In this document: in pieces, positions 1 through 46,692 of the stretch
Position numbering within the stretch: the first letter of the stretch is position 1
Layout of the letters: every line of letters starts with the position of its first letter
Source of the DNA: Phyllobates terribilis
Taxonomy: Eukaryota
Assembly (NCBI RefSeq): GCF_046119375.1
Contig: NW_027362773.1
Coordinates: 174,530,001 to 174,594,000 of the forward strand
Length of the DNA: 64,000 bases
Reading direction: 5' to 3'
Program-made: the position numbers and the translations under genes
The notes under the pieces: generated by a model
Told to the model about the DNA's origin: nothing
The model's database searches: none
The model's input: only the letters and a program-made list of their open reading frames with translations

Positions 1-2
1 AC

Positions 3-239
3 GTCTTCGTGACCAGGAGAGACGTTGAGTCCCACCTACCGGAGGGACACAGAGGTCGTGACCTGTATGTAGGGGACGAGGTCACCTTCACCCGGCACAA
101 GTGTGCCAAAGGACCCTACGCCCTCCATGTGCATCGCCTGACGGAGGAGGAGCTGCGGTGTGAGGAGGAGCAAGAGGACCCGGACGGGTCTGAAGCTAAA
201 GGTAACCACAAAGAAAGAGCAGGAGGACGTCGTCGTTGA
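3..239 (+). CDS. C-terminal part of the CSD protein of copy 1 (VFVTRRDVESHLPEGHRGRDLYVGDEVTFTRHKCAKGPYALHVHRL...RRR*), 5'-partial
   Basis: Open frame running in from the window edge, homologous to 44765-45010; second half of a cold-shock fold. The GTG start called at 9 is not the real start. Confidence 0.8.
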   Translation, partial: VFVTRRDVESHLPEGHRGRDLYVGDEVTFTRHKCAKGPYALHVHRLTEEELRCEEEQEDPDGSEAKGNHKERAGGRRR

Positions 240-689
240 GTACAGCAGAGTAGAAGCTGTATATAGTTGCCCGTCGGGGCACAGTGAACCGTTGCTGCTA
301 ATATAGTCCCCGTTGGGACCAGAGAACTGAACTGTTAACCCGTGTGTCCCTATTCCCACTGACCGAGGACTGAGAGCGGTCATCCCTATTCCCATTACCT
401 GGCCGAGGACTGAGAGCGGCCATACCTCCCCTTGTATATAGTTGCGCTTTCTAAAGCGCCCCCTACTGGTTTTATGGGAAAACCATTTTCTTCAAGAGAC
501 AGTCGCACTTTACCCGGTCACAAGTTGCACCGTGACCGGAGGAACCAGAGACAAGAGTGTTATTTATGAAAAGTTTTATATGAAAAGTTTTATATGATGT
601 TTTATTATGTTGTTTATGCAAAAATTGTATGTTTTGGTGTTTTTTGTATCTTACAGCCCGAGGACGTGCTGTGATTTACCAGGGGGGAA

Positions 690-1891
690 TGTAGCACCCT
701 GAGGATTCGGCTGCTACAGGGGTATTGCACCTCAACCCAGAGGTGTGATGTTCCACTCCCGGGTAAGGATGGAGTGTGGAACTGAGCTCAGAAAGCTGCA
801 TGCACTACACACATCCCATTTCCGAGGAACAGACCAACGGTACTCCCACTTAGAAATGTGCAGGTACGACCGAGTCTGTTCCTGGCTGGAGTGGGAGGGG
901 GGTGGTACATCCCAGTAGTGTAGGGGCAGATAGGGGGAGCAGCCTGGGTAAAGATAGGAGCTCATTGGGTGCTGGTCACCTGAGCTCACACATAGAGGGA
1001 GTATTTAAGGTGGGCACCATCTAAGATCAGGGTCAGTCTGTCAGCCTTTTGTCAGAGCAGAGCAGAGGAAGAGAGCAGAGGAGAAGAGCAGCTCCAAGGC
1101 CCAGAGAGAGAGAGGAGAAAGAAAGACCCAGAGGGGGAGAAAGAAGGAACTCTGAGAGCCCAAACTAAATCAAAGGGTGAAGAGTTGGCAACAGGGTACC
1201 GGATCCCAAGCTGGCAGAGGCTACAGTACACCTTAGCCAGAGACCGGAGGTCGTGGGCAGGATCTGCCACGATCACCCACTAAATCCACCCGGAAGGCAT
1301 ACCACGAATAGGGTCAGGAAAGCCAGAGAAGGTTTTGCCAACAAGAGGCCCGAGGGAGCCGGACATAGGTGGATCCCTGGTGGGGAAGGCCAGAGACGAG
1401 GACAGGTCAGAACGGGAGCTCAGAACCACGCTCCAGAACTACTTGGGGGTTGGCCGAGTCCAGGACCTGGTGGACGCAGCACGGCTCGGGTGGTCACTCA
1501 AGGCCGGAGTGACCGGAACATCTGCAGTAAGTAAAGAACCCTGAACTGCACAACCCGACTCTGTCTCTGATTACCATCATCCCTGCACTTCCACAACCAC
1601 CATCCTCTGCACCTGACCCCCTGAGGCTATACCCCTCCCGTTGGGGGTTATACTACCTAAGCTGCACAAACACCATCAGCCTCAGTGGACCCTGCTGCAG
1701 CGGCGGCCGTAGTGACCGCAATTCAACGGGTGGCGTAGTCGACATAAAGAACATCCAGTAGCATCATAGGACTGCCACACACTGAGCTTGACACCCTGGG
1801 CACGGACCGGGTCACCGCCACTCGGAGACTACAACCCCCATCTGATCCGGCTCCGGGTATCCCCAACAACACTGGCCCAGGGGGCGCGTCA
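690..1891 (+). repeat. 3' LTR (1202 bp) of CSD element copy 1
   Basis: TG...CA termini, PPT directly upstream, TATA-like gagtatttaagg, agtaaa poly(A)-like signal, homology to 41802-43022. Confidence 0.9.
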
Positions 1892-11762: not shown

Positions 11763-12798
11763 TGTAGCGCCCCGAGGGCTCGGCTGCTACAGAGGTATTG
11801 CACCTCAACCAGAGGTGTGATATTCCACTCCCAGGTAAGGATGGAGTGTGGACCAGGGCTTAGTTAGCTGCATACACACACAAACCCCATTTCCGGGGGA
11901 CAGCTCGACGGTGCTCCCATTTATGCAGGCACGACCGACTATGTCCCTGGCTGGAGTGGGGAGGGGGGAGAGAACCCAGTGATGTAGGAGCAGAAGGGGA
12001 TGGTTTCTGGAGCACAGGAAGGAGCTCATTGGGTGCAGGTCACCTGAGCTCAGACACAGAAGCAGATAAAAGGTGGGAGCCATCTTTAGTCAGAGTTCAG
12101 TTCAGAGAGTAGAGAGAGAGAAGTAGTTCAGCCAGAGAGAGCTGACAGGGAGCCGAGACTCAGCCTGAGCTCAGCTCCACGAGGCAGGCCTGGAGAGAAG
12201 GCCGGAGCCAGAGAGGAGAAGAGAAGAAGGAGAAGGAAGGAAGGAGAAGAGACAGAGGACTAGAAAGGCTCCAGAAACAAGAAGGCAGAAGGGACCCAAG
12301 AGAGCAGAACGGACAGCAACCGTTGCAAACCCGCGTTATATCAGGTGAAGGGTCAGGCTGTGGAAGGGTACCGGATTCCCAAGTTGGTGGAGGTCAATCA
12401 TCCCTCAGCCAAGAACCGGAGGTCGTGATCATTTATTGGTGCGACCCCCTGCTACACCCGCTAGTAAGGCACCACATAGGATAGCGGGAAACGGAGGCCA
12501 ACGCTTGCCCGATACGGTCCGCGGTAGCTGGACAGAAGTTTGGTCACTGGTGGGGCACGAGAGGCCAGAGAAAGGACAGAAGGGGGTCCTGTGCCACACT
12601 CCTGAGTTGCCTGGGGGTTGACCGAGCCCCTCACCTGGTGGACGCAGCACGGCTTGGGCAGTCATTGCTGACAGAAGTGACTTGGATAACAACTGTGAGT
12701 AAAAACCCTGGACTGCACCATTGGACTCTGTGTGATTTCTGCTGCGCCAGCACCATCACCCCCAGCATCCACCTACACTGCCCTGAGGGGGCGAGTCA
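11763..12798 (+). mobile_element. Solo LTR of a diverged subfamily of the CSD element, with a U5 deletion
   Basis: Starts tgtagcgccccgagggctcggctgctacag (cf. tgtagcaccctgaggattcggctgctacag), ends gggggcgagtca, 4-bp TSD atgt (11759-11762, 12799-12802). Confidence 0.85.
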
Positions 12799-16140: not shown

Positions 16141-17103
16141 TGACGCGCCCCTGGGCCTGTGTCGCGCTGCGTTGCGCACGCGGGAGCTTACCCGGAGCCG
16201 GATCTCTTGAGGGTTGTAGTCTCGTGGCGGTGACCCGGTCCGTGCCCAGGGAGTCAAACTGGACGGCAGTAGATGTAGTACGACTACGCCACCCGTTGAA
16301 TGCAGCTTATGGAGCTGCCGCTGCAGGACAGTCCGCTGAGGCCGGTGGATGGATGGTGCAGCGGGGATGGTATAACCCCCAACGGGAGGGGTATGGCCTC
16401 AGGGCAGCCGACGTGGATGATGGGGGTAGCAGGAACCACTCAGAGACGGTGCGGTGTAATTCAGGGTCTTTACTGGTAACAACGATAGACCCTCCCGGAG
16501 TACTTGCTAGCGAACGGGGCCTGGTCAGTCCTTGAGCAGATGGGATCTCCCCTGGCCAGGCGGAGTTGTAGGCCTCCCAAACTGACTGTACTCTTCTGGC
16601 TACCTTGCTAGAAGCGGATATAAGTAGCCCACGTCCCTGAGTGTACCGTGTGGTGCTCACCCGTATGGCCGGTGACTCGGGGCCTTCTAATGGCTTCCGC
16701 TCCACGATGGCGGTGCTGGTCCCACGCGTGTGACCGTGCCTTCGGGCTTCTGGGCCAGAGGACCTGAAATCCCCTGCCTGACGGATTCTGCTGCTGGGTA
16801 GGAGTTAGTCCCCACAGCCTCGGACTCCGGGTCCGGTAAAGAATCTTCTTAGTCAGGGCGAACTCTGCAGCTGCCAGCCCCTGACTCCTTGTAACTCTGC
16901 TGTTTCCTATGCTGCTTCTTGTCTCCACTCTCCTTGTTTGACTCACTCTGCCTCAGCCCCGGGTTTATATAGGGGAAGTTCTTCCCCTCCCAAGACTGGG
17001 CAGGAGGTGTGGCATGCACAGGATCCCTGACCAAAGGACCTCCCACCTGCTCTCAGACATAACATTACATTACTGTGGAAAACCAGACCCCTGGGGTGCC
17101 ACA
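16141..17103 (-). repeat. Gypsy 3' LTR (963 bp)
   Basis: tgtggcacc...gcgcgtca on the minus strand; PPT aggggggaa at 17104-17112. Confidence 0.96.
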
Positions 17104-17461
17104 TTCCCCCCTAGTGAAATTTAGTACTCCGGGACTAAACACATTTAGAAAAACATAACAAGGCAAAAAACATTAATAATACAATAAGAAAACATATAAA
17201 GATGGTTACGGCGTGTCCGCAACCGGGTGCAGTCTCTGAAAGAAGCAAGGTGTCCATTTCACCAACACAGGGAGACGTAACCAGGTAGGGGTCTGTCCTA
17301 CCCCGAGTCCTTAACAGTCTCTAGTCCATCCTGGGTTACGCTCCAACTATGTACAAGGATTCCCGGTCAATCCACCAAGGTTTCCTAAAAACATCTGGAA
17401 ACACAAAATTATACACAAGCAACAATACACAGATAAACATAAATAAAACTATTTTTACACT

Positions 17462-19276
17462 TCAAATTCTCCAGCGTGCGGGTAACTGGCCTCTAGTGGC
17501 CCTAGTGGACCTACGGAGCTGACTGTCTGGCCCTGAACTACAGGGTGTAGGAGCTGTCAAGGGTAAACTGGGCAGCTGTCTACCGGCTCTTTGTCTCACT
17601 AGGGGTACGGCAGGCTCACTATAAGCAGAGGGTTGATTCTCCTGTTCTACTCGTGTGGAGTCTTCTGCCTCCTGGACCGGCTGTTCTTCCAGCTCTACCC
17701 GTTGCTCCGTTGGTTCTTGGGATGATGGTTGGAGGAAGGTGAGTACGGGTACCACAACTGCACCATTGACTTGAGTCCAAGACCGAGGGAAGTCCCCGAG
17801 CACGGTACTAACCATATCTTCCCTTTCTCCCACGGGTCGATGGTCTTCTTGTTCCTCTTCAGGGTTCCTCAGTTGTTCGGGACACTTCTTCAGGTGGTCC
17901 CGGGACACAATGGCTGTGGTTTCCCCTCCGTCTTTACTGATGGTACAGACCTTCGGGTTCTCGTGGCTTGAGGGCAGTACGGTGTACGGGTCCTTCTCCC
18001 ACTGGTCATCCAACTTGTGGAGCCGTCTTTTCCTCTTCAAGACCTGCTCTCCGGGTACCAGGGGAACAGCGGGAGCATACTGGTTGTAAGTCTTCTCTTG
18101 TCTTTCCCTAGCCTGACAGAGACTTCGCTCCACGCTCTCTTGTACTCTCCGGTACTGCTGCTGCCTCTCTGTGTCCCAGTCTGTTTCTGGTGAAGTGTCC
18201 TCAGGTGTCAGGACTCCCATTTCCAGGTCAACAGGTAACTTACCAGGTCTCGCCCTCATTAGGTAAGCCGGGGTACAGTTGGTGGAACCTACCGGGATGT
18301 GGTTGTATAGGTCCACCAGATCGGGCAACTTCTCAGGCCACAGACTGCGTTCTTCCAGGGGCAATGTTTTTAGAAGATCCATTACCACCTGGTTCATTTT
18401 TTCACAAAGTCCATTAGTTTGCGGATGGTAGGGTGTCGTCCTTATCTTCCGGCAGCCATACAGATTGCAGAATTCCTGGAAGACCTCCGCTTCAAAGGCA
18501 GGTCCCTGGTCCGTCAGCACTTGGTCCGGGTACCCGTGTGGACGGCAGAAGTGCTGCTGGAAGGCTCTAGCTGCTGTTTGAGCCGTTAAGTCCTTGACGG
18601 GGACGACAACCAAGAACTGGGAGTAATGATCCACGATGGTTAACGCGTAGACGTAGCCACTTCTGCTTGGGGTCAGTTTTACATGATCCAAGGCTACCAG
18701 TTCCAACGGTTGCCGGGTGACGATGGACTGCAGGGGAGTCTTCTGGCTGGCCCGGTCCTTCCTTCTCAGATTGCACGGGCCACAGTCTCTGCACCACTTC
18801 TCGATGGTTCCCCTCATGCCTACCCAGTGGAACCGCTCGCGCAGCAGGAACTCCAGCTTTTTCCACCCGAAGTGTCCAGCTCCGTCGTGGTATGCCTCCA
18901 TCACCATGGCTGCGTCTCTTCGTGGCACCACTACTTGCCAGAGTAGTTCATGCGTCCAGGAGTTGACCATTCTGCGGCACAACTTCCCCTTGTAAAGGAA
19001 TAGTCGACTCTTCTCCGCCCATAGTTGTTTGGCTTCCTCCGGAGCGTCTGGTTCAAGGCGAGCCTCCGGCCGAGTCAGCATCTCCTTCACTAGTCGGACG
19101 GCAGGGTCGCTGTCTTGCGTTTCCGCCCAGTTGTAGTGGGGTAAGGGGTTCAACGTAGCAGCCTGCTTACCCCTTACCCGGTGGGAATACTGGATAGTCC
19201 CATGACGGTGGAACGCAGGGAGTTCAACTTCTTCCAGTCCCTCCGGATCTTCTCCTTCGTCCGGCAGGTTGGGCAT
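17462..19276 (-). CDS. pol: Gypsy integrase part of pol, cut off from RT-RH by an in-frame double stop
   Basis: HHCC motif (HDGAGH...CGPC), catalytic core ALDH / DQGPAFE / NGLCE, C-terminal RRSTR...PARW; same frame as 19337-21517. Confidence 0.92.
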   Translation of the reverse strand: MPNLPDEGEDPEGLEEVELPAFHRHGTIQYSHRVRGKQAATLNPLPHYNWAETQDSDPAVRLVKEMLTRPEARLEPDAPEEAKQLWAEKSRLFLYKGKLCRRMVNSWTHELLWQVVVPRRDAAMVMEAYHDGAGHFGWKKLEFLLRERFHWVGMRGTIEKWCRDCGPCNLRRKDRASQKTPLQSIVTRQPLELVALDHVKLTPSRSGYVYALTIVDHYSQFLVVVPVKDLTAQTAARAFQQHFCRPHGYPDQVLTDQGPAFEAEVFQEFCNLYGCRKIRTTPYHPQTNGLCEKMNQVVMDLLKTLPLEERSLWPEKLPDLVDLYNHIPVGSTNCTPAYLMRARPGKLPVDLEMGVLTPEDTSPETDWDTERQQQYRRVQESVERSLCQARERQEKTYNQYAPAVPLVPGEQVLKRKRRLHKLDDQWEKDPYTVLPSSHENPKVCTISKDGGETTAIVSRDHLKKCPEQLRNPEEEQEDHRPVGEREDMVSTVLGDFPRSWTQVNGAVVVPVLTFLQPSSQEPTEQRVELEEQPVQEAEDSTRVEQENQPSAYSEPAVPLVRQRAGRQLPSLPLTAPTPCSSGPDSQLRRSTRATRGQLPARWRI

Positions 19277-19336
19277 CCTGGACAGGGCATCCGCGTTAGT
19301 ATTGGAGCGTCCTGCCCGGTATTTGATTGTGAACTA

Positions 19337-21598
19337 CTAGTTGGACAGACGGGCCATCCACCTCTGCTCCAGGGCACCGAGTCTTGCCGTGTCCAGGTGT
19401 ATCAACGGGTTGTTATCCGTGTATACGGTGAACCGGGAAGAAGCGAGGTAATGCCTAAAGCGCTCGGTGACTGCCCATACCACGGCCAGGAACTCTAACT
19501 TAAATGAGCTGTAATTCTCGGGGTTCCTTTCGGTGGGTCGCAGTTTTCGGCTGGCATAGGAGATTACTCGTTCTCTCCCCTGCTGAATCTGGGACAGTAC
19601 GGCTCCTAGCCCGATGTTACTGGCGTCGGTGTAGAGGATGAAGGGCTGGCTATAGTCCGGGTACGCCAAGATTTCATCCCCCGTGAGGGCCATCTTCAGC
19701 TGGCGGAAGGACTCCTCTTCTAGCTCTTCCCATTTGAAGGGCGGCTTCTGGTTCTTGGCCTTCCGGGACTGGCCTATCAGGAGGTCCTGCATAGGCGCTG
19801 CCTTTTTGGTGAAACCGGGAATAAACCTTCGGTAGTAGCCTACCAACCCTAGGAACTGCCGCACTTCTTTTACGCTGGAGGGGCTTGGCCATCCCTTAAT
19901 TGCGGTGATCTTATCGGGGTCGGGAGCCACTCCGTCAGCGCTCACCACGTGTCCCAGGTATTGCACCTTTGGTTTCAGGAGGTGACACTTGGAGGGTTTC
20001 ACCTTTAGGCCGTAACTCGCCAGAGCTTCGAACACCTCCGCCAGGTGTTTCAGGTGGTCCTCATAAGTTTTGGAGTATACGATGACATCGTCCAGGTACA
20101 ACAGGACCGTCTCAAAGTTTCTGTGGCCCAGACAGCACTCCATTAATCGTTGGAAGGTTCCTGGGGCGTTGCAGAGTCCGAACGGCATGCAGGTGAACTC
20201 GCTAAGTCCCATCGGGGTGGTGAATGCGGTCTTCTCCCGGTCCGCCTCTGCTACAGGAACCTGCCAGTACCCGCTAGTGAGATCCAAGGTAGAGAAGAAG
20301 TTAGCAGATCTTAAAGCAGCCAATGACTCCTCTATCCTTGGTAAGGGGTACGCATCCTTGTGTGTGATACGGTTGATTTTCCGGTAATCTACACACATCC
20401 TCATGGTGTTGTCTTTCTTTTTGACTAAAACTAGTGGGGCTGCCCAGGGGCTACAGCTATCCCGGATTACCCCAGCCTCCTTCATGTCTCGAAGCATCCC
20501 CTTGGCGTGTTGGTAGTGTGCAGGGGGTACGGGTCGATACCTCTCTTTTATGGGAGGATGATCTCCCGTGGGGATGTGGTGTTCTACCCCCTTGACCCGC
20601 CCAAAGTCTAACGGGTGTTTACTAAACACTCTCTCATACTCTTGAACCACCCGATAGACTCCTTGTTTCTGATGTGAGGGAGTGGAATCAGTACCCAAAT
20701 GTAGTTGCTGACACCAGTCCTCCATGTCTTTCTTAGAGCCGTTACCTTCCTCCGGGTGAGATGGAGGCAAGGGTTCCACAGATTGTATAGAATTTTGATT
20801 AGTGGTATATAATTTGGCTAGCGTGGCATACCGGGGCAGGTACACTTCCCTCTCCCCGATATTTATTATGCGAATGGGCACCCTCCCATGGCGTACATTG
20901 ACCACCCCCCGTGCTGTCAAAATGGTGGGCCTACTGTCTGAGTAAACTGGTTCCACCATTGCCTGGTAATCTCTTCCTCTCAGACCAATAGCTGCCCGGC
21001 ACCAAATCATCATTTCACTTTTTGGGGGCATGGCAATAGGAAAAGGGTCACACATTCTTACGCTACCAATCTCACCGCCGGAGAGTTCCACTTGTTGCCG
21101 TTGCATCAGTGCCCGGATCTCTTTCTGGAGCACCCGCTGCTCGCCGGAGCTGGCGTTCTTGGCAACCTGCTGTAAAAGGAAAATCACCTCTGCAAGACAA
21201 TTTTCAATTACGTTAGTTCCCAGAGTTATTTTTGGGTGACTCTCATGTTTATCAATATCTACAATGATCAGTCCCTGTGCGGCCAGTTCGACTCTACCGA
21301 TTTTGAGGGCCACCTCTTTAAATCCGATCTGTGGCACGGGCTGGCCATTGCTGGCGATGATACTCAAGTCGTCGTCAGGGTAGTGGGTAATATCCGAGTC
21401 ATTCCAGTACTGCTTGAAGAGCACGTACGGGATGGTGGTGACCTGTGACCCGGTATCCAGTAGGGCACTCATGGGAATGCCATCCAGTACCACAGGCAAG
21501 ACTGGACGTCCTCCCACATATCTGTCGCGCCAGTTCGATGGGCCTGGTGATCTTTTTCCTGGGGGTTGGCCCTCTACCCCAGGTTGTGCCCGTTTAAA
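19337..21598 (-). CDS. pol: Gypsy pol: protease, RT, RNase H (entered by -1 frameshift from gag)
   Basis: LLDTGSQ, CVDYRKIN, LDLTSGYWQ, MPFGL, YLDD, YTDAS, YTDNNPL; ends at TAG TAG (19339-19334). Confidence 0.95.
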   Translation of the reverse strand, partial: FKRAQPGVEGQPPGKRSPGPSNWRDRYVGGRPVLPVVLDGIPMSALLDTGSQVTTIPYVLFKQYWNDSDITHYPDDDLSIIASNGQPVPQIGFKEVALKIGRVELAAQGLIIVDIDKHESHPKITLGTNVIENCLAEVIFLLQQVAKNASSGEQRVLQKEIRALMQRQQVELSGGEIGSVRMCDPFPIAMPPKSEMMIWCRAAIGLRGRDYQAMVEPVYSDSRPTILTARGVVNVRHGRVPIRIINIGEREVYLPRYATLAKLYTTNQNSIQSVEPLPPSHPEEGNGSKKDMEDWCQQLHLGTDSTPSHQKQGVYRVVQEYERVFSKHPLDFGRVKGVEHHIPTGDHPPIKERYRPVPPAHYQHAKGMLRDMKEAGVIRDSCSPWAAPLVLVKKKDNTMRMCVDYRKINRITHKDAYPLPRIEESLAALRSANFFSTLDLTSGYWQVPVAEADREKTAFTTPMGLSEFTCMPFGLCNAPGTFQRLMECCLGHRNFETVLLYLDDVIVYSKTYEDHLKHLAEVFEALASYGLKVKPSKCHLLKPKVQYLGHVVSADGVAPDPDKITAIKGWPSPSSVKEVRQFLGLVGYYRRFIPGFTKKAAPMQDLLIGQSRKAKNQKPPFKWEELEEESFRQLKMALTGDEILAYPDYSQPFILYTDASNIGLGAVLSQIQQGRERVISYASRKLRPTERNPENYSSFKLEFLAVVWAVTERFRHYLASSRFTVYTDNNPLIHLDTARLGALEQRWMARLSN
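21540..21598 (-). promoter_or_regulatory. -1 ribosomal frameshift signal: U-UUA-AAC followed by a predicted H-type pseudoknot
   Basis: Heptamer at 21598-21592, 8-nt spacer, stem cctgggg/ccccagg, loop gggcc pairing with downstream ggccc; the -1 frame is the pol frame. Confidence 0.75.
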
Positions 21599-22554
21599 GA
21601 ACAGTACCTTTCCATATGTCCGGATTGATTGCAGCGGCGGCAGATGGGTCGTCCGTCCTCGCTGTATCGGTCACTGGGTCTTCCTCTGGCCGGTGGGGTC
21701 CTCCTTGGTCGACGCCACGGGATGTCCTCCGGTCCGGATGCCAGCTGGATCTTCCCTGGGGTGGAAACCTGTAAAGACTGCACAGTTCGGGTTAGCGCAG
21801 CAACGCTCTTAGCTAGCTCTTGGACCTGATGGTGTAGGTCTGGAGCCGGGTCATTGTCCAAAGCCTGCGCATCAGCTCCCACAGGCCCTGCTGACAAGGG
21901 CGCCGCCTCCTGGTAGTAAGTGGTAGTGGGGCGTCTGTGGGTCACAACGCCACCTGGTGCCGGTTCTCGGAGCACCCGGATGGCTCTGTCCTTGAACTGT
22001 GCAAAGTCCAGATGGGGATCCTGTAAGGCCATTGCCCGCAACTGGGTTCGGTGGGCATTGCAATATAAACCCTCTATAAATTGTTCAGTCAACAGCCTGT
22101 CCTCGTTTCCCACCCCATCAGGGTCGGTCTGCTTTATGGCCCTCAGGGCCTCTTGTAGGTTTAGTGCATAGTCCCTTATACTCTCATGCGCTCGCTGCTT
22201 GCACCCGTAGAATCTAAGCTTAATCTCGGCTGAGGTGCGGGTATCAAAGGTGTCCTTCAGCCGGGTTAGTATCCCTGCGACAGTCTTCCTCCCAGGTGGC
22301 CAGGATTTTACTTCCCTTTTGGCTGCCCCGGTTAGTTGGGCCACCAGGATGCTCACTTTTTGCTCTTCTGTGAGGGGGTACACCTGGAAGAGGCTATCCA
22401 GCTTTTCTCTAAAGTCATGCAGGGTATGTGACTCCCCTGAGTACTGGGGTAGCCAGGCTGCTCCCGGGATATAGGGCATGGTGAAGGGCATAACTGCAGC
22501 AGCGGTAGCGCTGGCGGGGGTTGGGGCAGTGAAGCTCTCCTCCGTATCCGACAT
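21574..22554 (-). CDS. gag: Gypsy Gag (326 aa)
   Basis: Capsid-like KQRAHESIRDYALNL and EQFIEGL; CCHC knuckle CRRCNQSGHMERYC; position between leader and pol. Confidence 0.93.
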   Translation of the reverse strand: MSDTEESFTAPTPASATAAAVMPFTMPYIPGAAWLPQYSGESHTLHDFREKLDSLFQVYPLTEEQKVSILVAQLTGAAKREVKSWPPGRKTVAGILTRLKDTFDTRTSAEIKLRFYGCKQRAHESIRDYALNLQEALRAIKQTDPDGVGNEDRLLTEQFIEGLYCNAHRTQLRAMALQDPHLDFAQFKDRAIRVLREPAPGGVVTHRRPTTTYYQEAAPLSAGPVGADAQALDNDPAPDLHHQVQELAKSVAALTRTVQSLQVSTPGKIQLASGPEDIPWRRPRRTPPARGRPSDRYSEDGRPICRRCNQSGHMERYCSLNGHNLG

Positions 22555-22995
22555 CTTCCTCCCCCCTAGTGGACCGTGGCCTACCTTGCGATGATCCTCT
22601 TCCGTAGGCCGCGGCTCCGCAGTGGATCGTCAGGGTTGAGGACCTTCCGTCGCGCTCCTGTGACGTCGGCGTCTGCTGGGCTCCTTCCAGGACCTTACGC
22701 AACGTCCGGACGTGAGGCGGGGCTTCAGTTCTCGCGCGCTTTCAGAGTCCACGCCCCTCTTCTTCCCGCGCGGCGTCCCCAAGATGGCGTCCAACGGCGG
22801 GAAAACTCCACGGATGGCGGGAAGAAGGCCGAAGATGGCGCCGGATGGCGGGAAACTTCACCGATGGCGGGAAGAAGGTAGAAGATGGCGCCGGATGGCG
22901 GGAAACCTCCACGGATAGCGGGAATCTTCACCACTGGTAAGTTTGAACAGTCTTTGCTTTTCAGGCACGCAGTACCCGGTGGTTGCGGGCACGAG

Positions 22996-23013
22996 ATCCT
23001 GCCGACTACGCCA
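22996..23013 (-). promoter_or_regulatory. Primer-binding site, tRNA-Ser (TGGCGTAGTCGGCAGGAT)
   Basis: 18-nt complement of the vertebrate tRNA-Ser 3' end as I recall it (...ATCCTGCCGACTACG-CCA), 4 nt from the LTR. Confidence 0.9.
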
Positions 23014-23017
23014 AAGT

Positions 23018-23980
23018 TGACGCGCCCCTGGGCCTGTGTCGCGCTGCGTTGCGCACGCGGGAGCTTACCCGGAGCCGGATCTCTTGAGGGTTGTAGTCTC
23101 GTGGCGGTGACCCGGTCCGTGCCCAGGGAGTCAAACTGGACGGCAGTAGATGTAGTACGACTACGCCACCCGTTGAATGCAGCTTATGGAGCTGCCGCTG
23201 CAGGACAGTCCGCTGAGGCCGGTGGATGGATGGTGCAGCGGGGATGGTATAACCCCCAACGGGAGGGGTATGGCCTCAGGGCAGCCGACGTGGATGATGG
23301 GGGTAGCAGGAACCACTCAGAGACGGTGCGGTGTAATTCAGGGTCTTTACTGGTAACAACGATAGACCCTCCCGGAGTACTTGCTAGCGAACGGGGCCTG
23401 GTCAGTCCTTGAGCAGATGGGATCTCCCCTGGCCAGGCGGAGTTGTAGGCCTCCCAAACTGACTGTACTCTTCTGGCTACCTTGCTAGAAGCGGATATAA
23501 GTAGCCCACGTCCCTGAGTGTACCGTGTGGTGCTCACCCGTATGGCCGGTGACTCGGGGCCTTCTAATGGCTTCCGCTCCACGATGGCGGTGCTGGTCCC
23601 ACGCGTGTGACCGTGCCTTCGGGCTTCTGGGCCAGAGGACCTGAAATCCCCTGCCTGACGGATTCTGCTGCTGGGTAGGAGTTAGTCCCCACAGCCTCGG
23701 ACTCCGGGTCCGGTAAAGAATCTTCTTAGTCAGGGCGAACTCTGCAGCTGCCAGCCCCTGATTCCTTGGAACTCTGCTGTTTCCTATGCTGTTTCTTGTC
23801 TCTACTCTCCTTGACTGACTAACCCTGCCTCAGCCCCGGGTTTATACAGGGGAAGTTCTTCCCCTCCCAAGACTGGGCAGGAGGTGTGGCATGCACAGGA
23901 TCCCTGACCAAAGGACCTCCCACCTGCTCTCAGACATAACATTACATTACTGTGGAAAACCAGACCCCTGGGGTGCCACA
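23018..23980 (-). repeat. Gypsy 5' LTR (963 bp)
   Basis: Identical to 16141-17103 except in one ~86-bp patch. Confidence 0.96.
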
Positions 23981-24941
23981 CATGGATTACAGACAGTAGA
24001 GCAGAGCTGCAGTATGAAGCGTGGATTACAGACAGTAGAGCAGACCTGCAGTGTAAAGCATGGATTACAGACAGTAGAGCACAGCTGCAGTATGAAGCGT
24101 GGATTACAGACAGTAGAGCAGAGCTGCAGTATGAAGCATGGATTACAGACAGTAGAGCAGAGCTGCAGTGTAAAGCATGAATTACAGACAGTAGAGCAGA
24201 GCTGCAGTATGAAGCGTGGATTACAGACAGTAGAGCAGAGCTGCAGTATGAAGCATGGATTACAGACAGTAGAGCAGACCTGCAGTATGAAGCGTGGATT
24301 ACAGACAGTAGAGCAGAGCTGCAGTATGAAGCATGGATTACAGACAGTAGAGCAGAGCTGCAGTATGAAGCATGGATTACAGACAGTAGAGCAGAGCTGC
24401 AGTATGAAGCATGGATTACAGACAGTAGAGCAGACCTGCAGTATGAAGCGTGGATTACAGACAGTAGAGCAGAGCTGCAGTATGAAGCGTGGATTACAGA
24501 CAGTAGAGCAGAGCTGCAGTGTAAAGCATGAATTACAGACAGTAGAGCAGAGCTGCAGTATGAAGCGTGGATTACAGACAGTAGAGCAGAGCTGCAGTAT
24601 GAAGCGTGGATTACAGACAGTAGAGCAGAGCTGCAGTATGAAGCATGGATTACAGACAGTAGAGCAGAGCTGCAGTATGAAGCATGGATTACAGACAGTA
24701 GAGCAGACCTGCAGTATGAAGCGTGGATTACAGACAGTAGAGCAGAGCTGCAGTGTAAAGCATGGATTACAGACAGTAGAGCAGAGCTGCAGTATGAAGC
24801 GTGGATTACAGACAGTAGAGCAGAGCTGCAGTGTAAAGCATGGATTACAGACAGTAGAGCACAGCTGCAGTATGAAGCGTGGATTACAGACAGTAGAGCA
24901 GAGCTGCAGTGTAAAGCATGAATTACAGACAGTAGAGCAGA
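23981..24941. repeat. 39-bp minisatellite, right part
   Basis: Same unit as 14128-16140, resuming in register after the TSD. Confidence 0.97.
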
Positions 24942-25623: not shown

Positions 25624-26143
25624 TGTCGGGGTAAAAGAGAATATATATATTTGTAACTTTTATACTTTTGTAACTTTTATACGTTTTTTTGCTAATGTAC
25701 TAACCACCATTTTGTGTCTTATAACAATAAGCTTTCCTTGCTACGTAATACTCAAATCGAAACTTAAACTAAGACAGTTCCAGTGTTGCCAAGATTTATT
25801 TCAGAGAAACGAAACAAGATTATAAGCTGACGGCTGCAATATCTGCCCAGAGACTGAGATAAGGAGATGTGGACCAATCAGGAGTGGCTAGACACTGGAC
25901 TTTCATGGCTTACCCCGCTCCGGACAACCTCTTTCCCCTCCCATTATGTAGTGTATTTAGATTTGTGCATGTAAAAAATAAATTCAGAACATTGCTGAGG
26001 ACGTTGTCTGTAGTAGCCTTCTGAGCATGCTCTGAGCTTGAACCAGCTTGTTGTCTGACTCATTCTTTGAATGGTTGACCCATGCTCATAGTTTGAATTT
26101 GGAGTGACTGGAGGACGAGTGGAATGTCATCACGACCCCCACA
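25624..26143 (+). repeat. ERV 5' LTR (520 bp)
   Basis: tgtcggggt...ccccaca, direct repeat of 32032-32549. Confidence 0.95.
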
Positions 26144-26145
26144 AA

Positions 26146-26163
26146 TGGCGCCCAACGTGGGGC
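26146..26163 (+). promoter_or_regulatory. Primer-binding site, tRNA-Lys1,2 (TGGCGCCCAACGTGGGGC)
   Basis: Matches the canonical Lys1,2 PBS, 2 nt after the LTR. Confidence 0.92.
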
Positions 26164-26626
26164 GTGGCTAGCGGTACGCCGCCCTCCCGGACCCATATTG
26201 CTGATTTCCCTGGTGGTGACCGCGGTGGCTGAATTTGAGGCCTGATCAACCTCCATCGAACACGGTAAGTTGAGATGTATTTTATATGTCTCACTTGCCT
26301 GTGTGTCAGCCGCAGCGGTTCCTGTTGGGTTGTCAGGTTGGATCTGGGTGGGTGACCGGTCGAGTGGTGAGACCTTGGGCGTCCCGCACCACGTCCTGAA
26401 CCAGCAAGTGTTAAAACGAGTGACGTCGCATGCCTGCGCGTGCTCGTGTGCACACCACCTCCTCCTCCCCCGGTCACTGTACTTTTCTTAGATAGCTGCC
26501 TCCCGTAACTGATAGTCGAGGTTTCAAAGCATTCCTGAATTGTAGTGTAAGGGAGAAAGAATCTGTGACGAATTGAGGAGTACTCTTCGTCTAACACAGA
26601 AACTGCTGTAAAGTCAAGGTTAGGAA

Positions 26627-26942
26627 ACAGTGTATTGAGGTGTCTCTACACTGTCGGGTGGTACCGTGGTAGGAAAGCAGATAGATTGAGGTGTCTCTCT
26701 ATCTCAACAGTGTATTGAGGTGTCTCTACACTGTCGGGTGGTGCCGTGGTAGGAAAGGAGATAGATTGAGGTGTCTCTCTATCTCATCAGTGTATCGAGG
26801 TGTCTCTACACTGACGGGTGGTGACCTGTAGTCAGGGTGCCGTGGTGAGTCGCACTGTAAAGTCGCCATTCAAGGCTAGGAAAGGAGTTAGATTGAGGTG
26901 TCTCTCTATCTCATCAGTGTATTGAGGTGTGCTCTACACTGA
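26627..26942 (+). repeat. Seven tandem hairpin-forming repeats in the ERV leader
   Basis: Core ttgaggtgtctc enclosed alternately by cagtgta/tacactg and agataga/tctatct stems. Confidence 0.8.
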
Positions 26943-27251
26943 GGAGTGGCGACCTGTGGACTGCACCAGTGATCTGAGTCGCGACAGATCATTGCATTCT
27001 ATAAGAAAATGTTGTGTATATTTAAATTTGAAAGATCTCGTAAGTTGTGGAATGCTGCTGTAGGAGTTAAGCCAATTAGTGGAGTTACGGGAAGGCAAGA
27101 AGGCAAGAAGAATGTTAGGAATTTGTATAACATGATAAGCTTATCCAGTACAGGCAGGCTTTAGTTTTCAGTGTAGAAAGAATGTGTGATACAGAAGTTG
27201 GGAAAGTTGGGTGAGGATTTTTGCACCAGACTCAAGCACATCTTAGAGTAG

Positions 27252-28615
27252 ATGGTGCAGGGGGGAACAGAGAATGCCGAGCCTTTGTTCGGATACATGA
27301 AAGCTGCAGAATGTGATTTGTTATGTGCCCCCAAAATGGCCGTTGCACCTTTGATGCCTGTCACTACACTGAGCCCTCAGTCACCACCCTATAATGGCGC
27401 CGACGCCAAATTACCGGAGGGGTGGACGTGTCGGGTGTGTGGAGAGCAAAACCCACTCTGGGCGGGCCGCCCATGGCACGATGCCCAGTCTGCCCCCAAG
27501 AATAATCCCACCCCCACTCCCACCCACTCCCACCTCCTCCCTCCAACGGCCATTTTGCTACACCTCTTACTTGTTGTGGGCGGCCCGGAAAGCCCCAATC
27601 CGGCCTATATCCACTACTAGATCCGTCCGGTGCATATTACCAGCCACCAGCACAGGTGGAAAAGCCCGCAGTCCCAGAGCACCCATCTGAAACTAATGTG
27701 ACACCCTCTGCTCCAGTCCACGATGCTGAGACGCTTCCCCTGTTTCCTATGGGAGTCACCCACAACCCTGGGGATATCCTCCTCAACCCCCCAGAATTTC
27801 AGGCCAGACTGCTCTCCCTCCGCCAACATACTGTTACTCAAGACGATATGGAGCCAGATGAGGGATGGGCTCAAGATACTCCAGCCCCCCCCCCCCGTCT
27901 TTACCCCATACGTCTCCTATGGCATCCTTCACCCCACATCCATTACCCGTACTCCGGCCCTTGCTCCAAGCAACTGCTGAAAGAGCCCCACCCCCCAGCC
28001 CCTCAGAAGTCTGGGACCCCTGCCGCTCCCGGAATCTAGTAGACCCATCAGGACGCCCTGTCACTCTGTCAATAGGCTATGGTGACATCCTTACACATCG
28101 GGTGGGGGCCATAGTCAACCCTGCAAACACCTGTATGAGCCATGTTGGAGGATTGGCTCGCAAAATTTCCCTTGCTGCTGGTTCTACTCTGGCTGCAGAA
28201 TGCCAGGCTCACTTAGCCGAAAACGGAGAGCTTTCAAAAGGCCATGGTTTCCACAAAAGCAGGATCTCTTAGTACGTATGAATCCGGCCTAGAATACATG
28301 AAACAGTTAAAGGCCTGGGCTCAGGATCGCTTGTCAGATCAAGCTGGGTCTGTACAAGATGTTCAACAAGACCCTGATGAATCTGTGGAAAGATATGCTG
28401 CAAAACTCAGCATGCATTTTGAGGATCTTGGATACAGTCCTCACGTCAAGACGCAGGCCGCCCTGTTGGTTCAGGCCCTGGTAAATGGCCTACAAGACGC
28501 CCTCAGAGATGAAGTCCTGAGAGTACGGCCCGAGATTCGTTCTTCTTCTTTCAACGACGCGGTGGATATCGTTAAAGCTTTCCATAAATCAATGCTAAAA
28601 ATGGAAAAGGATACT
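27252..28615 (+). pseudogene. gag: Frameshifted ERV gag remnant: Cys motif, Pro-rich region, macrodomain, capsid C-terminal part
   Basis: WTCRVCGEQN; GDILTHRVGAIVNPAN; MHR-like QQDPDESVERYAAKL and ALVNGL; spread over several frames. Confidence 0.75.
28060..28272 (+). pseudogene. Macrodomain (ADP-ribose-binding fold), N-terminal part, inside gag
   Basis: VTLSIGYGDILTHRVGAIVNPANTCMSHVGGLARKISLAAGSTLAAEC matches GDI...IVNAAN..L.HGGGVA.AI..AAG..L..EC; it continues after a frameshift as G-MVSTKAGSL. Confidence 0.85.
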
Positions 28616-31582: not shown

Positions 31583-31585
31583 AAG

Positions 31586-31812
31586 ATGACTACCTTCTTC
31601 TATATCCTTTCCATATGCTTACTGTCTGTCCCAGGGTGGACAGCTACCACACAGGGGTAGATACCTCCTTTTTCTCAAGTTGGTTGGGAGGGCTCAAGGG
31701 ATTTCTCCAACAAGTTTGTCTAGTAATGGGAGGTCTATTAGTATTGGGCCTGGTGGTCCTGTGCTGCATAGTCCCCTTATATAGAGAAATATACTCCTTT
31801 GAACAAGCCTGA
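31586..31812 (+). pseudogene. env: env remnant: signal peptide joined out of frame to the membrane anchor
   Basis: MTTFFYILSICLLSVPGWTATTQG* directly after integrase, then SFFSSWLGGLKGFLQQVCLVMGGLLVLGLVVLCCIVP in another frame. Confidence 0.7.
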
Positions 31813-32031
31813 CCAGACCCCCTCATGATAAAGTTCAATTGAAAGATTCAGTTTAGGATCAGTTGGGAGAACTCCATGTGTCACCCAGGATAGGGCTCGA
31901 TTGTCTGGGGGGCGTCCCATAAGGGGGCAGCTTCTAAGATGATTGGGTGAAGAAATCCACCTCCCCTCTCCCCACACATGGACAGTCTCAAAGGCCCCGA
32001 AGCAAGGGAAAGCTTAGTGTTTAGGGGGGAA

Positions 32032-41801: not shown

Positions 41802-43022
41802 TGTAGCACCCTGAGGATTCGGCTGCTACAGGGGTGTTGCACCTCAACCCAGAGGTGTGGTATTCCACTCCCGGGTAAGGATGGAGTGTGGAACTGAGCT
41901 CGGTAGGCTGCATGCACTACACACATCCCATTTCCGAGGAACAGACCAACGGTACTCCCACTTAGAAATGTGCAGGTACGACCGAGTCTGTTCCTGGCTG
42001 GAGTGGGAGGGGGGTGGAACATCCCAAGTAGTGTAGGGGCAGATAGGGGGAGCAGCCTGGGTAAAGATAGGAGCTCATTGGGTGCTGGTCACCTGAGCTC
42101 ACACATAGAGGGAGTATATAAGGTGGGCACCATCAAAGAACAGGGTCAGTCAGTCAGCCACAGTCAGTCAGTCTGTGAGTCTTTGCAGAGAAGTCAGAGG
42201 AAGAGCAGAGCAGAGAAGCCTGAGCCAGAGTGAGAGAGGAGAAAGCAAGAAAGACCCAGAGGGGGAAACAGAAAAGGAACTCTGAGAACCCAAAGTCCAT
42301 CAGCGGGTGAAGAGTTGGCATCAGGGTACCGGAACCCAAGCTGGTGGGGGCAAAAACACACCCCAGCCAGAGACCGGAGGCCGTGGGCAGCGTTTGCCGC
42401 GGCCACCCACCACATCCACCACGAAGGCATACCACGTGGAGGGTCAGGGAACCCAAGGCCAAGGGTCTCCCAACAGAAGGCCCGAGGGAGCTGGACCTGG
42501 GTGGATCAATAGTGGGGACGGCCAGTGAAAGGACAGAAGGAGAGCTCAGGGTCACGCTCCGGACTCGCTTGGGGGTTGGCTGGATCCAGGACCTGGTGGA
42601 TGCAGCACGGCTCGGGAGGTCACTTGAAGCTGGAGTGACCGGAACATCAGCAGTGAGTAAATACCCTTAACTGCATAACCCGACTCTGTCTTCCTTTAAC
42701 ATCTATGCTGCACCACCACAACCCCCATCCTCTGCACCTGACCCCCTGAGGCTATACCCCACCCGTTGGGGGTTATACCATCAATAGCTGCACCAACACC
42801 ATCAGCCTCAGCGGACCCTGCTGCAGCGGCGGCCATAGTGACCGCAATACAACGGGTGGCGTAGTCGACATTAAGAACTAAATAACATCTGTAGGACTGC
42901 CACATACAACTGAGTTTGACACCCTGGGCACGGACCGGGTCATAGCCACTCGGAGACTACAACCCCCATCTGATCCGGCTCCGGATATTCCCCCTAAAGA
43001 ATATGGCCCAGGGGGCGCGTCA
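41802..43022 (+). repeat. 5' LTR of CSD element copy 2 (1221 bp)
   Basis: tgtagcacc...gggggcgcgtca; about 10 differences from the 3' LTR. Confidence 0.95.
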
Positions 43023-43026
43023 ACTT

Positions 43027-43044
43027 TGGCGTAGTCGGCAGGAT
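43027..43044 (+). promoter_or_regulatory. Primer-binding site, tRNA-Ser (TGGCGTAGTCGGCAGGAT)
   Basis: Identical to the Gypsy PBS, including the 4-nt actt spacer. Confidence 0.9.
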
Positions 43045-43234
43045 CTCGTGCCCGCAACCACCGGGTACTGCGTGCCTGAAAAGCAAAGACTGTTCAAACT
43101 TACCAGTGGTGAAGGTTTCCCGCCATCCGGCGCCATCTTCTACCTTATTCCCGCCATCTGCAGAGTTTCCCGCCACTGGGAAGCGGTTCCCGCCATTTCC
43201 AAAGGTTTCCCGCCTTGGAAGAGCGGACGCCATT

Positions 43235-45010
43235 ATGGGCGTGCCAGAGGGTGGTGAGAGGCCACCTCCCATCGTGGGCCAGGACCGAAAATGGCGCCAA
43301 AAGTGGAAACCGCCCCCACCAACAGAGACTGTGATGCTAGAGGTGTCTGTCAGCGTGAAAGAACCGCCCCTGGAGCTGACAATCACCAAGTGGCCCCGGG
43401 ACCGCCCTCGAGGTGGGAGGAGACGAAAGGAGAGAACAAAGATGGGTGCCGCCTGGAGCAGTCTAGAGCGAGCGCACCCGGAGGCAAGAAGCCTGGAGAA
43501 GAATATCGGAGGAGCTTACCCGGAGATGGCGAGAAAGCAGAGCAGCACCGGCCCGCTGGCCAGGAGCCTGCTGGAGACGACTGTAGGAGAGCAGAGCAGC
43601 ACCGACCCGTTGGTCAGGAGCCTGCTGGAAACAACGACCCCACTAGGCCTAGTGGAGGTCCTAGCACAGCTCCCCCGAGACCGGGAGTGTGCACAGACCG
43701 CTCTGGAGGGCCTCGCAAGGAGGATGGCCCGGGTGCAGCGAGAGATGTTGGCGGAGTGGAGCCGTGAGATGGCCCAGCAGACCGAGACCTGTGAGCGGAG
43801 CACGCCACCCGAGACGAGGAGACAGACCGCCTCTGAGGATGGCGCGGGAGGACTGAAGGCCGGAGACGGCGCCGAGAAGGGAGCCGAACGAGTGGAGGCA
43901 GGTAAAGGGGACGTCTATACCCCAGACCGGGAAACCGCGTACCTGCCCCAGCTCCCCGTCGCAGAGCCCGAAGTCTATCCTGCCGTGCCCGTCGCTGCAA
44001 CGTCACCGCCGCAGACTAGGCCTCAAACGGGAGCCGCGACCCCTGTGACGTCACACGCCTCGACCCCGAGCGTGACCAAGCAGGAAGTACCACCAGCCTG
44101 GTCGCAAGGCCTAGTACCCCCGGGCGCCGCAATACCAACAGCGCCCCCTACCTCCGCGGAGCCCCCGGCCTGGTCGCAGGGCCAAGTAGCCCAGGGCGCC
44201 GCCGTCCTTACGGTGCCCTTTACCTTCCAGATACCCCAGGCCTGGCCGCAAGGCCCGGGCAACCCGGGCGCCACCACCACCGCGCCCATAAGACCAAGAG
44301 TGCCGCATCTGGGAGAGGACCTGTACGCCCAACATACGTGCCCGGATGGGCAGCCATTTATATGGCCACCGGAGTTCCACCATCCCCGACTCCGGAGAGA
44401 GAGACCCCTGGATGAACCCCTGATCCCGGCTCCAAAGCCCGTAAAGAGGATCTCGCCCCCGCTAGCGGAAGCACAGTTTGAGTGGGACCCCACCGGAGAA
44501 GATCTTATGGGGTTCACTCAAGAGACTCGGGCAGCTGCAGCGGAGCGTGCTGAGTGCTGCCGCCAACAGCTCGAGGACTTCGAGAGGGAGCGGAGAGAGA
44601 GGCGGGTCCGGGAACAGCTAGCTCAAGTAAAGAGCGCGGAGCAGAAGAGCCGGGCCAGGAGAGACCCCCGTGCAGCGCATAGTCCCCGCACCACCGGGAC
44701 TGTGATAAAGTTTAACCTGCAGCATGGGTGGGGCTTCATCCGAGACCACCACACCCTAGGCGACGTCTTTGTGACCAGAAGAGACGTTGAGTCCCACCTG
44801 CCGGAGGGACACAGAGGTCGTGACCTTTACATCGGGGACGAGGTCACCTTCACCCGGCACAAGTGTGCCAAAGGTCCCTACGCCCTCCATGTGCATCGCC
44901 TGACGGAGGAAGAGCTGCGGTGTGAGGAGGAAGAACAAGAGGACCCGGACGGGTCTGAAATTAGAGCCAAAGGTAACCAAAAAGCAAGAGCAGGAGGACG
45001 CCGTCGCTAA
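43235..45010 (+). CDS. 591-aa protein (from the first ATG) with Pro/Ala/Thr-rich middle, predicted coiled coil and C-terminal cold-shock domain
   Basis: Uninterrupted frame. GTVIKFNLQHGWGFIRDHHTLGDVFVTRRDV...LYIGDEVTF...KGPYALHV (44696-44902) matches CSD RNP1 (GFGFI) and RNP2 (DVFVH) with Y-box-like spacing. Start uncertain: ATG 43235 or 43442, both in good Kozak context. Confidence 0.82.
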   Translation: MGVPEGGERPPPIVGQDRKWRQKWKPPPPTETVMLEVSVSVKEPPLELTITKWPRDRPRGGRRRKERTKMGAAWSSLERAHPEARSLEKNIGGAYPEMARKQSSTGPLARSLLETTVGEQSSTDPLVRSLLETTTPLGLVEVLAQLPRDRECAQTALEGLARRMARVQREMLAEWSREMAQQTETCERSTPPETRRQTASEDGAGGLKAGDGAEKGAERVEAGKGDVYTPDRETAYLPQLPVAEPEVYPAVPVAATSPPQTRPQTGAATPVTSHASTPSVTKQEVPPAWSQGLVPPGAAIPTAPPTSAEPPAWSQGQVAQGAAVLTVPFTFQIPQAWPQGPGNPGATTTAPIRPRVPHLGEDLYAQHTCPDGQPFIWPPEFHHPRLRRERPLDEPLIPAPKPVKRISPPLAEAQFEWDPTGEDLMGFTQETRAAAAERAECCRQQLEDFERERRERRVREQLAQVKSAEQKSRARRDPRAAHSPRTTGTVIKFNLQHGWGFIRDHHTLGDVFVTRRDVESHLPEGHRGRDLYIGDEVTFTRHKCAKGPYALHVHRLTEEELRCEEEEQEDPDGSEIRAKGNQKARAGGRRR

Positions 45011-45470
45011 GGACAGCGAAGCAGAAGCTGTATATAGTTGCCCGTCGGGGCACCGTAAACTGAAATCGTGAACTGAAACTGAAACTGTTGCTGTTGCTAA
45101 TATAGTCCCCGTTGGGACCAGCATGTGTGAACTGTTTACCCGTATTTCCCTTAATTCCCACTGACCGAGGACTGAGAGCGGTCATTCCTCCCTAATACCT
45201 GGCCGAGGACTGAGAGCGGCCATATCCTTGTATATAGTTGCGCATCCTAAAGCGCCCCCTACCGGTTTTATAGGAAAACCAGTTTTCCAGAAAGACTGTC
45301 GCACTTTACCCGGTCACACGTTGCACAGTGACCGGAGGAGGAGCCAGAGGCGACGAGAATGTTTTATATATATATAATGTTTTATATGTTTTATATGTTA
45401 TGCAAAAATTTGTATGTTTTGGTGTTATGTCTTACAGCCCGAGGACGTGCTGTGATTTACCAGGGGGGAA

Positions 45471-46692
45471 TGTAGCACCCTGAGGATTCGGCTGCTACAG
45501 GGGTATTGCACCTCAACCCAGAGGTGTGATATTCCACTCCCGGGTAAGGATGGAGTGTGGAACTGAGCTCGGTAGGCTGCATGCACTACACACATCCCAT
45601 TTCCGAGGAGCAGACCGACGGTACTCCCACTTAGAAATGTGCAGGTACGACCGAGTCTGTTCCTGGCTGGAGTGGGAGGGGGGTGGTACATCCCAAGTAC
45701 TGTAGGGGCAGATAGGGGGAGCAGCCTGGGTAAAGATAGGAGCTCATTGGGTGCTGGTCACCTGAGCTCACACATAGAGGGTGTATATAAGGTGGGCACC
45801 ATCAAAGAACAGGGTCAGTCAGTCAGCCACAGTCAGTCAGTCTGTGAGTCTTTGCAGAGAAGTCAGAGGAAGAGCAGAGCAGAGAAGCCTGAGCCAGAGT
45901 GAGAGAGGAGAAAGCAAGAAAGACCCAGAGGGGGAAACAGAAAAGGAACTCTGAGAACCCAAAGTCCATCAGCGGGTGAAGAGTTGGCATCAGGGTACCG
46001 GAACCCAAGCTGGTGGGGGCAAAAACACACCCCAGCCAGAGACCGGAGGCCGTGGGCAGCGTTTGCCGCGGCCACCCACCACATCCACCACGAAGGCATA
46101 CCACGTGGAGGGTCAGGGAACCCAAGGCCAAGGGTCTCCCAACAGAAGGCCCGAGGGAGCTGGACCTGGGTGGATCAATAGTGGGGACGGCCAGTGAAAG
46201 GACAGAAGGAGAGCTCAGGGTCACGCTCCGGACTCGCTTGGGGGTTGGCTGGATCCAGGACCTGGTGGATGCAGCACGGCTCGGGAGGTCACTTGAAGCT
46301 GGAGTGACCGGAACATCAGCAGTGAGTAAATACCCTTAACTGCATAACCCGACTCTGTCTTCCTTTAACATCTATGCTGCACCACCACAACCCCCATCCT
46401 CTGCACCTGACCCCCTGAGGCTATACCCCACCCGTTGGGGGTTATACCATCAATAGCTGCACCAACACCATCAGCCTCAGCGGACCCTGCTGCAGCGGCG
46501 GCCATAGTGACCGCAATACAACGGGTGGCGTAGTCGACATTAAGAACTTAATAACATCTGTAGGACTGCCACATACAACTGAGTTTGACACCCTGGGCAC
46601 GGACCGGGTCACAGCCACTCGGAAGACTACAACCCCCATCTGATCCGGCTCCGGATATTCCCCCTAAAGAATATGGCCCAGGGGGCGCGTCA
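45471..46692 (+). repeat. 3' LTR of CSD element copy 2 (1222 bp)
   Basis: Direct repeat of 41802-43022, preceded by aggggggaa. Confidence 0.95.

Follow-up and report, generated by a model that had tools for sequence, protein, structure and literature searches.

Already known are helper and parasite pairs of plants that exchange LTR parts, pararetrovirus pairs kept together by recombination, and single-ORF, pol-less LTR elements of vertebrates. In soybean, an autonomous and a non-autonomous LTR element reportedly form such a pair (the work of Du et al. in 2010), the partner exchanging LTR segments and thereby keeping up with its helper, and it is in this tracking of the helper that the soybean pair resembles the frog system presented here. 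Gag-only elements, including TR-GAG, are also known, and helper assignment for non-autonomous LTR elements is usually made from sequence likeness alone. Hybrids between LTR families have been ascribed to probable heterodimeric cross-packaging (PMC6894440), and grass non-autonomous pararetroviruses likewise maintain their partnership through recombination that homogenises non-coding signals (PMC5491270). Among vertebrates, zebrafish Bik-1 and Bik-2 (Bhikhari) are described as young LTR elements with one ORF, no pol and a need for a partner, as in the case below (PMC12067270), and Xenopus 1A11 and Xretpos as frog LTR elements that likewise lack pol and have one ORF, which in 1A11 encodes a protein of similar size (71 kDa) to the one reported here (PMC4585706). 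Where these sources characterise the ORF of such vertebrate elements, it is Gag or Gag-like.

Here we analysed a 64,000-nt stretch of the Phyllobates terribilis genome (hereafter the window), from frogs whose very large genomes abound in Gypsy elements (PMC6278860). The window carries a Ty3/Gypsy retrotransposon and, 20 kb away, an LTR element whose only gene encodes a cold-shock domain (CSD). An initial annotation had claimed that this Gypsy family would supply Gag, reverse transcriptase (RT) and integrase in trans, and this claim found support in a census of primer-binding sites (PBS), in the target profile, in the U5 tree and in hybrid insertions with intact target-site duplications (TSDs). 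We consider it highly probable that the CSD element depends on proteins of the Gypsy lineage for its packaging, reverse transcription and integration, in the manner set out in full below.

The CSD element (41802..46692, plus strand) lies in a 75-bp satellite and is flanked by the TSD TATG. Its 5' LTR (41802..43022, 1221 nt) shows 9 mismatches to its 3' LTR (45471..46692) and ends in a U5 (~42721-43022) homologous to that of the Gypsy element. Downstream follow a PBS (43027..43044) identical to the Gypsy PBS, a Gypsy-derived patch (43045..43146) in place of the usual CSD leader and, at the crossover back to CSD sequence, an 11-nt leader repeat present in both families (43148..43158). A single ORF of 591 aa (43235..45010) then encodes disordered regions, two predicted long helices, a C-terminal cold-shock domain (44693..44896; PF00313, above the curated cut-off) and an acidic tail, and the polypurine tract (PPT) occupies 45459..45470. 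Two further copies lie on the same strand: the 3' part of a second CSD element (1..1891, with its 3' LTR at 690-1891), cut by the window edge and 84% identical to the first, and a solo LTR of an older CSD subfamily (11763..12798, TSD ATGT, 87% identical to copy L112). CSD elements have two TG...CA LTRs, a TSD, a PBS and a PPT, domain searches and blastn of their bodies found neither RT nor integrase, and their cis-signals and integration signature are common with an autonomous partner, as in non-autonomous LTR elements. LARDs and TRIMs are defined by a non-coding internal region, and assignment to these classes is ruled out by the 591-aa ORF under purifying selection.

The Gypsy element (16141..23980, minus strand, TSD CATG) is inserted in a 39-bp satellite, with a 5' LTR (23018..23980, 963 nt) and a 3' LTR (16141..17103) that share 99.1% identity, and a PPT at 17104..17115. 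Its tRNA-Ser-type PBS (22996..23013) presumably corresponds to the AGA/TGA isoacceptor; no full tRNA gene matching this younger PBS was called among 12 loci, the sole ARAGORN call being a doubtful Ala. A PNMA-like gag with a CCHC knuckle (21574..22554, 326 aa), whose product matches PNMA and Retrotrans_gag, both below cut-off, overlaps pol (17462..21670), the overlap being likely expressed via a -1 frameshift. The order of gag, then protease (assigned by motif alone), RT, RNase H and integrase, with no env, is that of Ty3/Gypsy elements. Two adjacent in-frame stops (19334-19339) interrupt pol between RNase H and integrase, and because of this interruption the window copy is not itself the helper. 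The designation of Gypsy as helper therefore stands for a lineage of related Gypsy subfamilies, in which 12 of 29 census copies retain a pol frame of 1360 aa or more, and falls for the neighbouring locus. Tandem satellites (14128-24941, 41580-50118 and 1892-6707, with units of 39, 75 and 62 bp) surround or adjoin the Gypsy element and the two CSD elements, and both U5s contain a second, partial PBS copy made of its first 11 nt (42850-42867 and 23158-23175).

About 100 nt of near-identity across LTR end, PBS and leader had been reported between the two elements, and such a stretch is present: window positions 23028-22920 of the minus strand (LTR tip, PBS and leader) align with 43012-43120 over 109 nt at 98% identity, beyond which a less similar match extends across a tandem leader repeat. 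Its reading as a conserved signal of the family is rejected. Among 47 CSD copies compared, the near-identical ungapped run from the PBS reaches 96 nt in the window copy, against 54-61 nt in 41 others and less in 5. Typical CSD copies have a ~75-nt core and a 72%-similar U5 in common with Gypsy, the shared part running from the LTR tip across the PBS and through 36 nt of the leader, with a median identity of 93% over 54 nt (n=46); past the core, leaders are ~48% alike between Gypsy and CSD, against 79% among Gypsy copies. Compared with its nearest relatives, the window copy has CSD-type sequence as far as the PBS, switches to Gypsy type over 43045 to ~43146 and then returns to CSD type, a pattern found at 3 sites under a strict definition and 7 under a looser one, versus ~5,350 sites of its CSD subfamily (all counts being lower bounds from exact motifs). 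The ~100-nt identity is a recombination patch, and the window CSD copy a rare hybrid.

The other shared signals are of unequal value. Three of the four U5 blocks described as shared are exact in all LTRs of both elements, the fourth differing in the CSD 3' LTR, and overall U5 identity is 72%. The PPTs do agree, both ending in GGGGGGAA, and the TSDs (CATG and TATG) are 4 bp long as stated; however, because an unrelated ERV of the window (25624-32550) has the same PPT and a 4-bp TSD, both features are non-discriminating and constitute weak evidence of pairing. This ERV has 521-nt LTRs that are 99% alike, the TSD ATAT, an MLV-like integrase C-terminus and frames in pieces, and its PBS, which we take to be Lys-type, differs from that of the Gypsy and CSD elements. 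U3/R and coding regions proved unrelated, as the initial annotation had it: matches between the families are limited to 34-60 nt, nearly all at the U5 border, blastn of 10 CSD bodies against any full Gypsy body returned zero matches, and hhalign of the CSD protein against the helper Gag gave a probability of 0.1.

For the window CSD copy alone, the patch could have been converted from the Gypsy element 20 kb away, a possibility that we take seriously while placing it below even chances. Apart from one 19-nt repeat unit, which appears as a single gap, this neighbour agrees with the patch throughout (0 mismatches), down to a minority base pair directly after the PBS, and since leader-patch hybrids are so rare (3-7 of 5,350), a matching neighbour is a notable coincidence. 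Yet the two bases right after the PBS are highly variable in both families, and standing variants among other Gypsy copies fit the patch gap-free with 1 mismatch, located at a highly variable base.

The family-wide pattern was addressed through the users of this primer site. The exact PBS occurs at 69,769 sites of the 10.6-Gb genome, and a census of 60 of the first 66 sites on one contig (the first 11.6 Mb of one chromosome) comprised 29 Gypsy, 25 CSD, 1 gag-only and 5 unclassified sites; extrapolated from these 60 sites, the genome would hold very roughly 29,000 CSD and 34,000 Gypsy copies. No other autonomous family with the tRNA-Ser PBS appeared among the 60 sites (5 unclassified), and 15 sampled Gypsy members of this younger primer class form one group in the RT tree (92/88). 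Two sites (L092 and L113) that share this PBS and have a leader of related sequence lack any gag, pol or CSD match near the PBS and are possibly further non-coding parasites of the Gypsy helper.

The target sites of both families agree as well. Full-length copies are flanked by perfect 4-bp TSDs in 59 of 62 cases for Gypsy and 38 of 39 for CSD, and one palindromic target profile describes both sets: at p<0.05 the families differ at 0 of 10 positions, and when scored against the Gypsy profile, CSD sites reach +4.0 bits versus -3.5 +/- 0.6 for flanks. LTR divergences overlap (Gypsy 0-1.9%, n=21; CSD 0-3.0%, n=19), CSD copies being younger on average (median 0.33% vs 0.91%, p=0.002). Neither of the outcomes that the initial annotation had named as counting against the pairing was observed, every CSD age class having coeval Gypsy copies with the same primer site and the census containing no other autonomous family. 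The two complete insertions of the window, Gypsy and CSD element, fit the common target profile.

In a U5 tree of 61 copies (built without L108, which has an orphan PBS), Gypsy and CSD types interleave, 5 or more label changes being required on starred branches, and old CSD copies group with old Gypsy subfamilies. CSD monophyly in U5 was rejected (p-AU 2e-27, 59 rows, without the long branches L081 and L139). These trees bear on the reading in which the element arose once from a Gypsy ancestor, the shared signals being left over from that event, and now uses another helper, a reading that we hold to be extremely improbable. Typical copies are 72% alike in U5 and ~48% in the leader past the core, as a relic would allow, and 5 of the 60 census sites are unclassified; but a single origin predicts the CSD clade that is rejected in U5, the hybrids described below are very young, and the sample contains no other autonomous family with this PBS, the window ERV having a different one. 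Repeated acquisition of U5 from a Gypsy lineage in current use thus remains the preferred reading.

Hybrid insertions were found at 7 sites joining a CSD U5 to a Gypsy leader and at 40 sites of the reciprocal class (Gypsy U5, CSD leader), and we examined the 6 sites of the first class other than the window copy and 14 of the 40. Six insertions (L085, L141, L147, L148, L149 and L157) have one LTR per family, joined at the PBS, and 5 of these 6 retain a TSD, L147 having none at the ends as set. In L158, a Gypsy element with identical LTRs carries a 160-nt CSD leader; in L144, a Gypsy coding region is flanked by CSD LTRs; L143 is a second case of a patched leader, here derived from a different Gypsy subfamily; and L090, L152, L153, L154 and L156 combine a CSD U3 with a Gypsy U5 in both LTRs. 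Very young members are present, with 0-3 LTR mismatches. A perfect 4-bp TSD flanks 20 of 21 tested hybrids, for a chance matching of 1.9% (L142 and L145 being duplicates of one insertion, and two tandem arrays being left out). An intact TSD implies that a hybrid most likely integrated as a hybrid, and these TSD-intact insertions suggest that a single particle contained two different RNAs, which were reverse-transcribed together. The two arrays (L146 and L150) consist of alternating Gypsy and CSD bodies with LTRs in common.

Ectopic gene conversion or recombination between integrated copies could also produce patches and hybrids at the DNA level, outside particles, the candidate donor for the window copy being its matching neighbour; as a general account, we regard this as very improbable. 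A crossover between two insertions would leave mismatched TSDs, whereas those of 20 of the 21 hybrids match, and whole-LTR replacements stop exactly at the LTR edge and PBS, where homology extends over 10-30 nt only. DNA-level conversion does not account for the family pattern or, readily, for whole-LTR swaps with intact TSDs, and template switching within particles is the reading that we retain.

A third family is itself hybrid, with Gypsy LTRs, 99 gag codons fused in frame to the acidic tail of the CSD protein, and a CSD 3' UTR. This Gag/acidic-tail mini-element, with a 133-aa ORF, is amplified and makes up 9 of 40 sites of a 33-mer sample (L007, L008, L010, L022, L025, L026, L032, L034 and L036). 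Its truncated Gag may possibly interfere with assembly.

The cold-shock protein distinguishes the parasite. PF00313 is matched at 32.1 bits (cut-off 27), with 18 of 18 members matching. Across 12 in-frame subfamily copies (the frameshifted L112 being left out), dN/dS is 0.07 in the CSD (95% CI 0.03-0.13), 0.09 in the preceding helix and 0.27 overall; the domain is under strong purifying selection, and the long ORF with CSD is retained in 17 of 25 census CSD copies. The modelled C-terminal module (mean pLDDT 78) comprises a long helix and an OB barrel that fits CspA and YBX1/2 at ~2 A rmsd in a fold search; the full-length model is of low confidence (pLDDT 40), the remainder being predicted mostly disordered. 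Conserved aromatic RNP1/RNP2-like residues are retained, and together with the predicted fold they suggest that the domain binds single-stranded nucleic acid. Members of the Y-box family are marked by a highly conserved YBX-type CSD, and membership is not supported here, identity to YBX (30-33%) being no better than to bacterial Csp; as donor candidates, YBX and bacterial Csp score about equally. An Atlas search gave weak leads (best 0.77). A Gag identity is likewise unsupported, Pfam returning the CSD only and no capsid-like fold being seen in the low-confidence full-length model (pLDDT 40), although the N-terminal part could still have a remote Gag ancestry. There are deletion copies that lack the CSD and have young LTRs (L082 and L097), which speaks against a strict requirement for the protein in cis. 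All 30 bins are covered by contigs from two runs presumed to be RNA, which is not evidence of transcription. Three host gene models (P0002, P0108 and P0109; R3HCC1-like, UVS.2-like and one unnamed) include the coiled-coil/CSD module, through either exonisation or annotation error.

The association extends to an older primer class. A profile search of 1.84 billion representatives recovered related coiled-coil and CSD proteins named from Ranitomeya, Anomaloglossus and, weakly, Bufo, these cross-species relatives being known from proteins alone and proteins named from Phyllobates terribilis being left out of the count. A genome search with one such relative returned 108 older repeats; 15 of the 20 examined have a different PBS, and several LTR pairs are ~94-95% alike. 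This older PBS, complementary to a tRNA-Ser(CGA) gene found in the same genome, occurs at 8,117 sites, and 20 of the first 36 comprised 12 Gypsy-type, 6 CSD-type and 2 unclassified sites. In a joint U5 tree, the two primer classes separate (100/100) whereas the element types do not, both being present on each side, and one primer change is needed in the RT tree (92/88) as well as, weakly, in the CSD protein tree (57/88); on these grounds, parasite and helper most likely changed primer together. Near 1440-1530 in L192, L194 and L195, genome-embedded tRNA-Ser 3' halves end in CCA, followed in L194 by an LTR-end linker, which suggests that RT read past its normal stop in the primer.

In the mechanism that we propose, the CSD element, with one cold-shock gene and neither gag nor pol, would have its RNA packaged, reverse-transcribed and integrated by Gypsy proteins, this RNA bearing a helper-type U5, the tRNA-Ser primer site, the leader core and the PPT, with a U3/R of its own. 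RNAs of both families would sometimes enter one particle, where RT could switch templates along strand-transfer routes described for retroviruses and Ty1. The window copy, with CSD LTRs, PBS, Gypsy leader and CSD body, would result if the minus strand switched templates at the common leader repeat, and insertions with one LTR per family if the plus strand jumped from one molecule to another at the PBS; we infer both co-packaging and these routes from the hybrids. Such swaps would repeatedly supply the parasite with a fresh U5, its source being the Gypsy subfamily active at the time, and they probably also brought the parasite past the switch of primer tRNA in its helper. The favoured role of the CSD protein, to which we give about even chances, is that of a Y-box-like RNA chaperone on the element's transcript, where it would enhance stability or entry into helper particles, by analogy with host YB-1, which supports HIV RNA metabolism and virion output (PMC6040738).

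The same YB-1 precedent would also fit a mutual partnership, itself compatible with co-packaging, in which the cold-shock protein also helps Gypsy RNA in trans and the CSD element is the accessory-gene segment of a two-part retroelement. The families are ~1:1 and persist together across the primer change, and CSD-less deletion copies still spread; on the other side, strong purifying selection between subfamilies would be more easily kept by a benefit in cis, and we saw no sign here of Gypsy dependence on the cold-shock protein, which leaves a mutual partnership unlikely. Under the preferred reading of helper and parasite, a broader and still tentative picture can be drawn, in which the CSD element would be satellite-virus-like, its captured CSD acting as a hijacking factor that loads the RNA of the element, in competition with that of the helper, into Gag particles. 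The element may have followed its helper through subfamily turnover and the primer-tRNA switch in dendrobatoid frogs, possibly more widely, may modulate Gypsy-driven genome expansion, and would have spawned, with the truncated-Gag family, a third party capable of interfering with assembly.

We found no description of an LTR element with a cold-shock domain in the literature (Repbase and Dfam lying outside this scope), and the term is absent from the main texts of two poison-frog genome papers, whose supplementary repeat libraries may list the element. Compared with the systems introduced above, the frog pair differs from the soybean one in its vertebrate genome, in a body and U3/R without helper homology, and in a selected non-Gag protein. 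The ORF of Bik-1 and Bik-2 is Gag, and the partner of Bik-1 is not named in the cited description (PMC12067270), whereas the ORF of the CSD element is non-Gag and its helper is identified. 1A11 is described as Gag-like, with 20-30 ORF copies, and Xretpos as tRNA-Arg-primed, with no cold-shock domain mentioned in that description (PMC4585706), by which the CSD element would be set apart from both. Grass pararetroviruses belong to a different virus class, and no captured RNA-binding domain is mentioned in the abstract (PMC5491270). YBX1/YBX2 and bacterial CspA have the same predicted OB fold, with 30-37% domain identity to the CSD of the element. TSD-intact natural hybrids, including those with one LTR per family, amount to nearly direct evidence that co-packaging takes place in the germline of a vertebrate, and a parasite about as abundant as its helper offers a case for testing how LTR parasites compete for packaging in large, Gypsy-rich frog genomes. 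What is new with respect to the known pairs is the captured, selected CSD in a pol-less parasite, together with unusually direct genomic evidence for its pairing with a helper.
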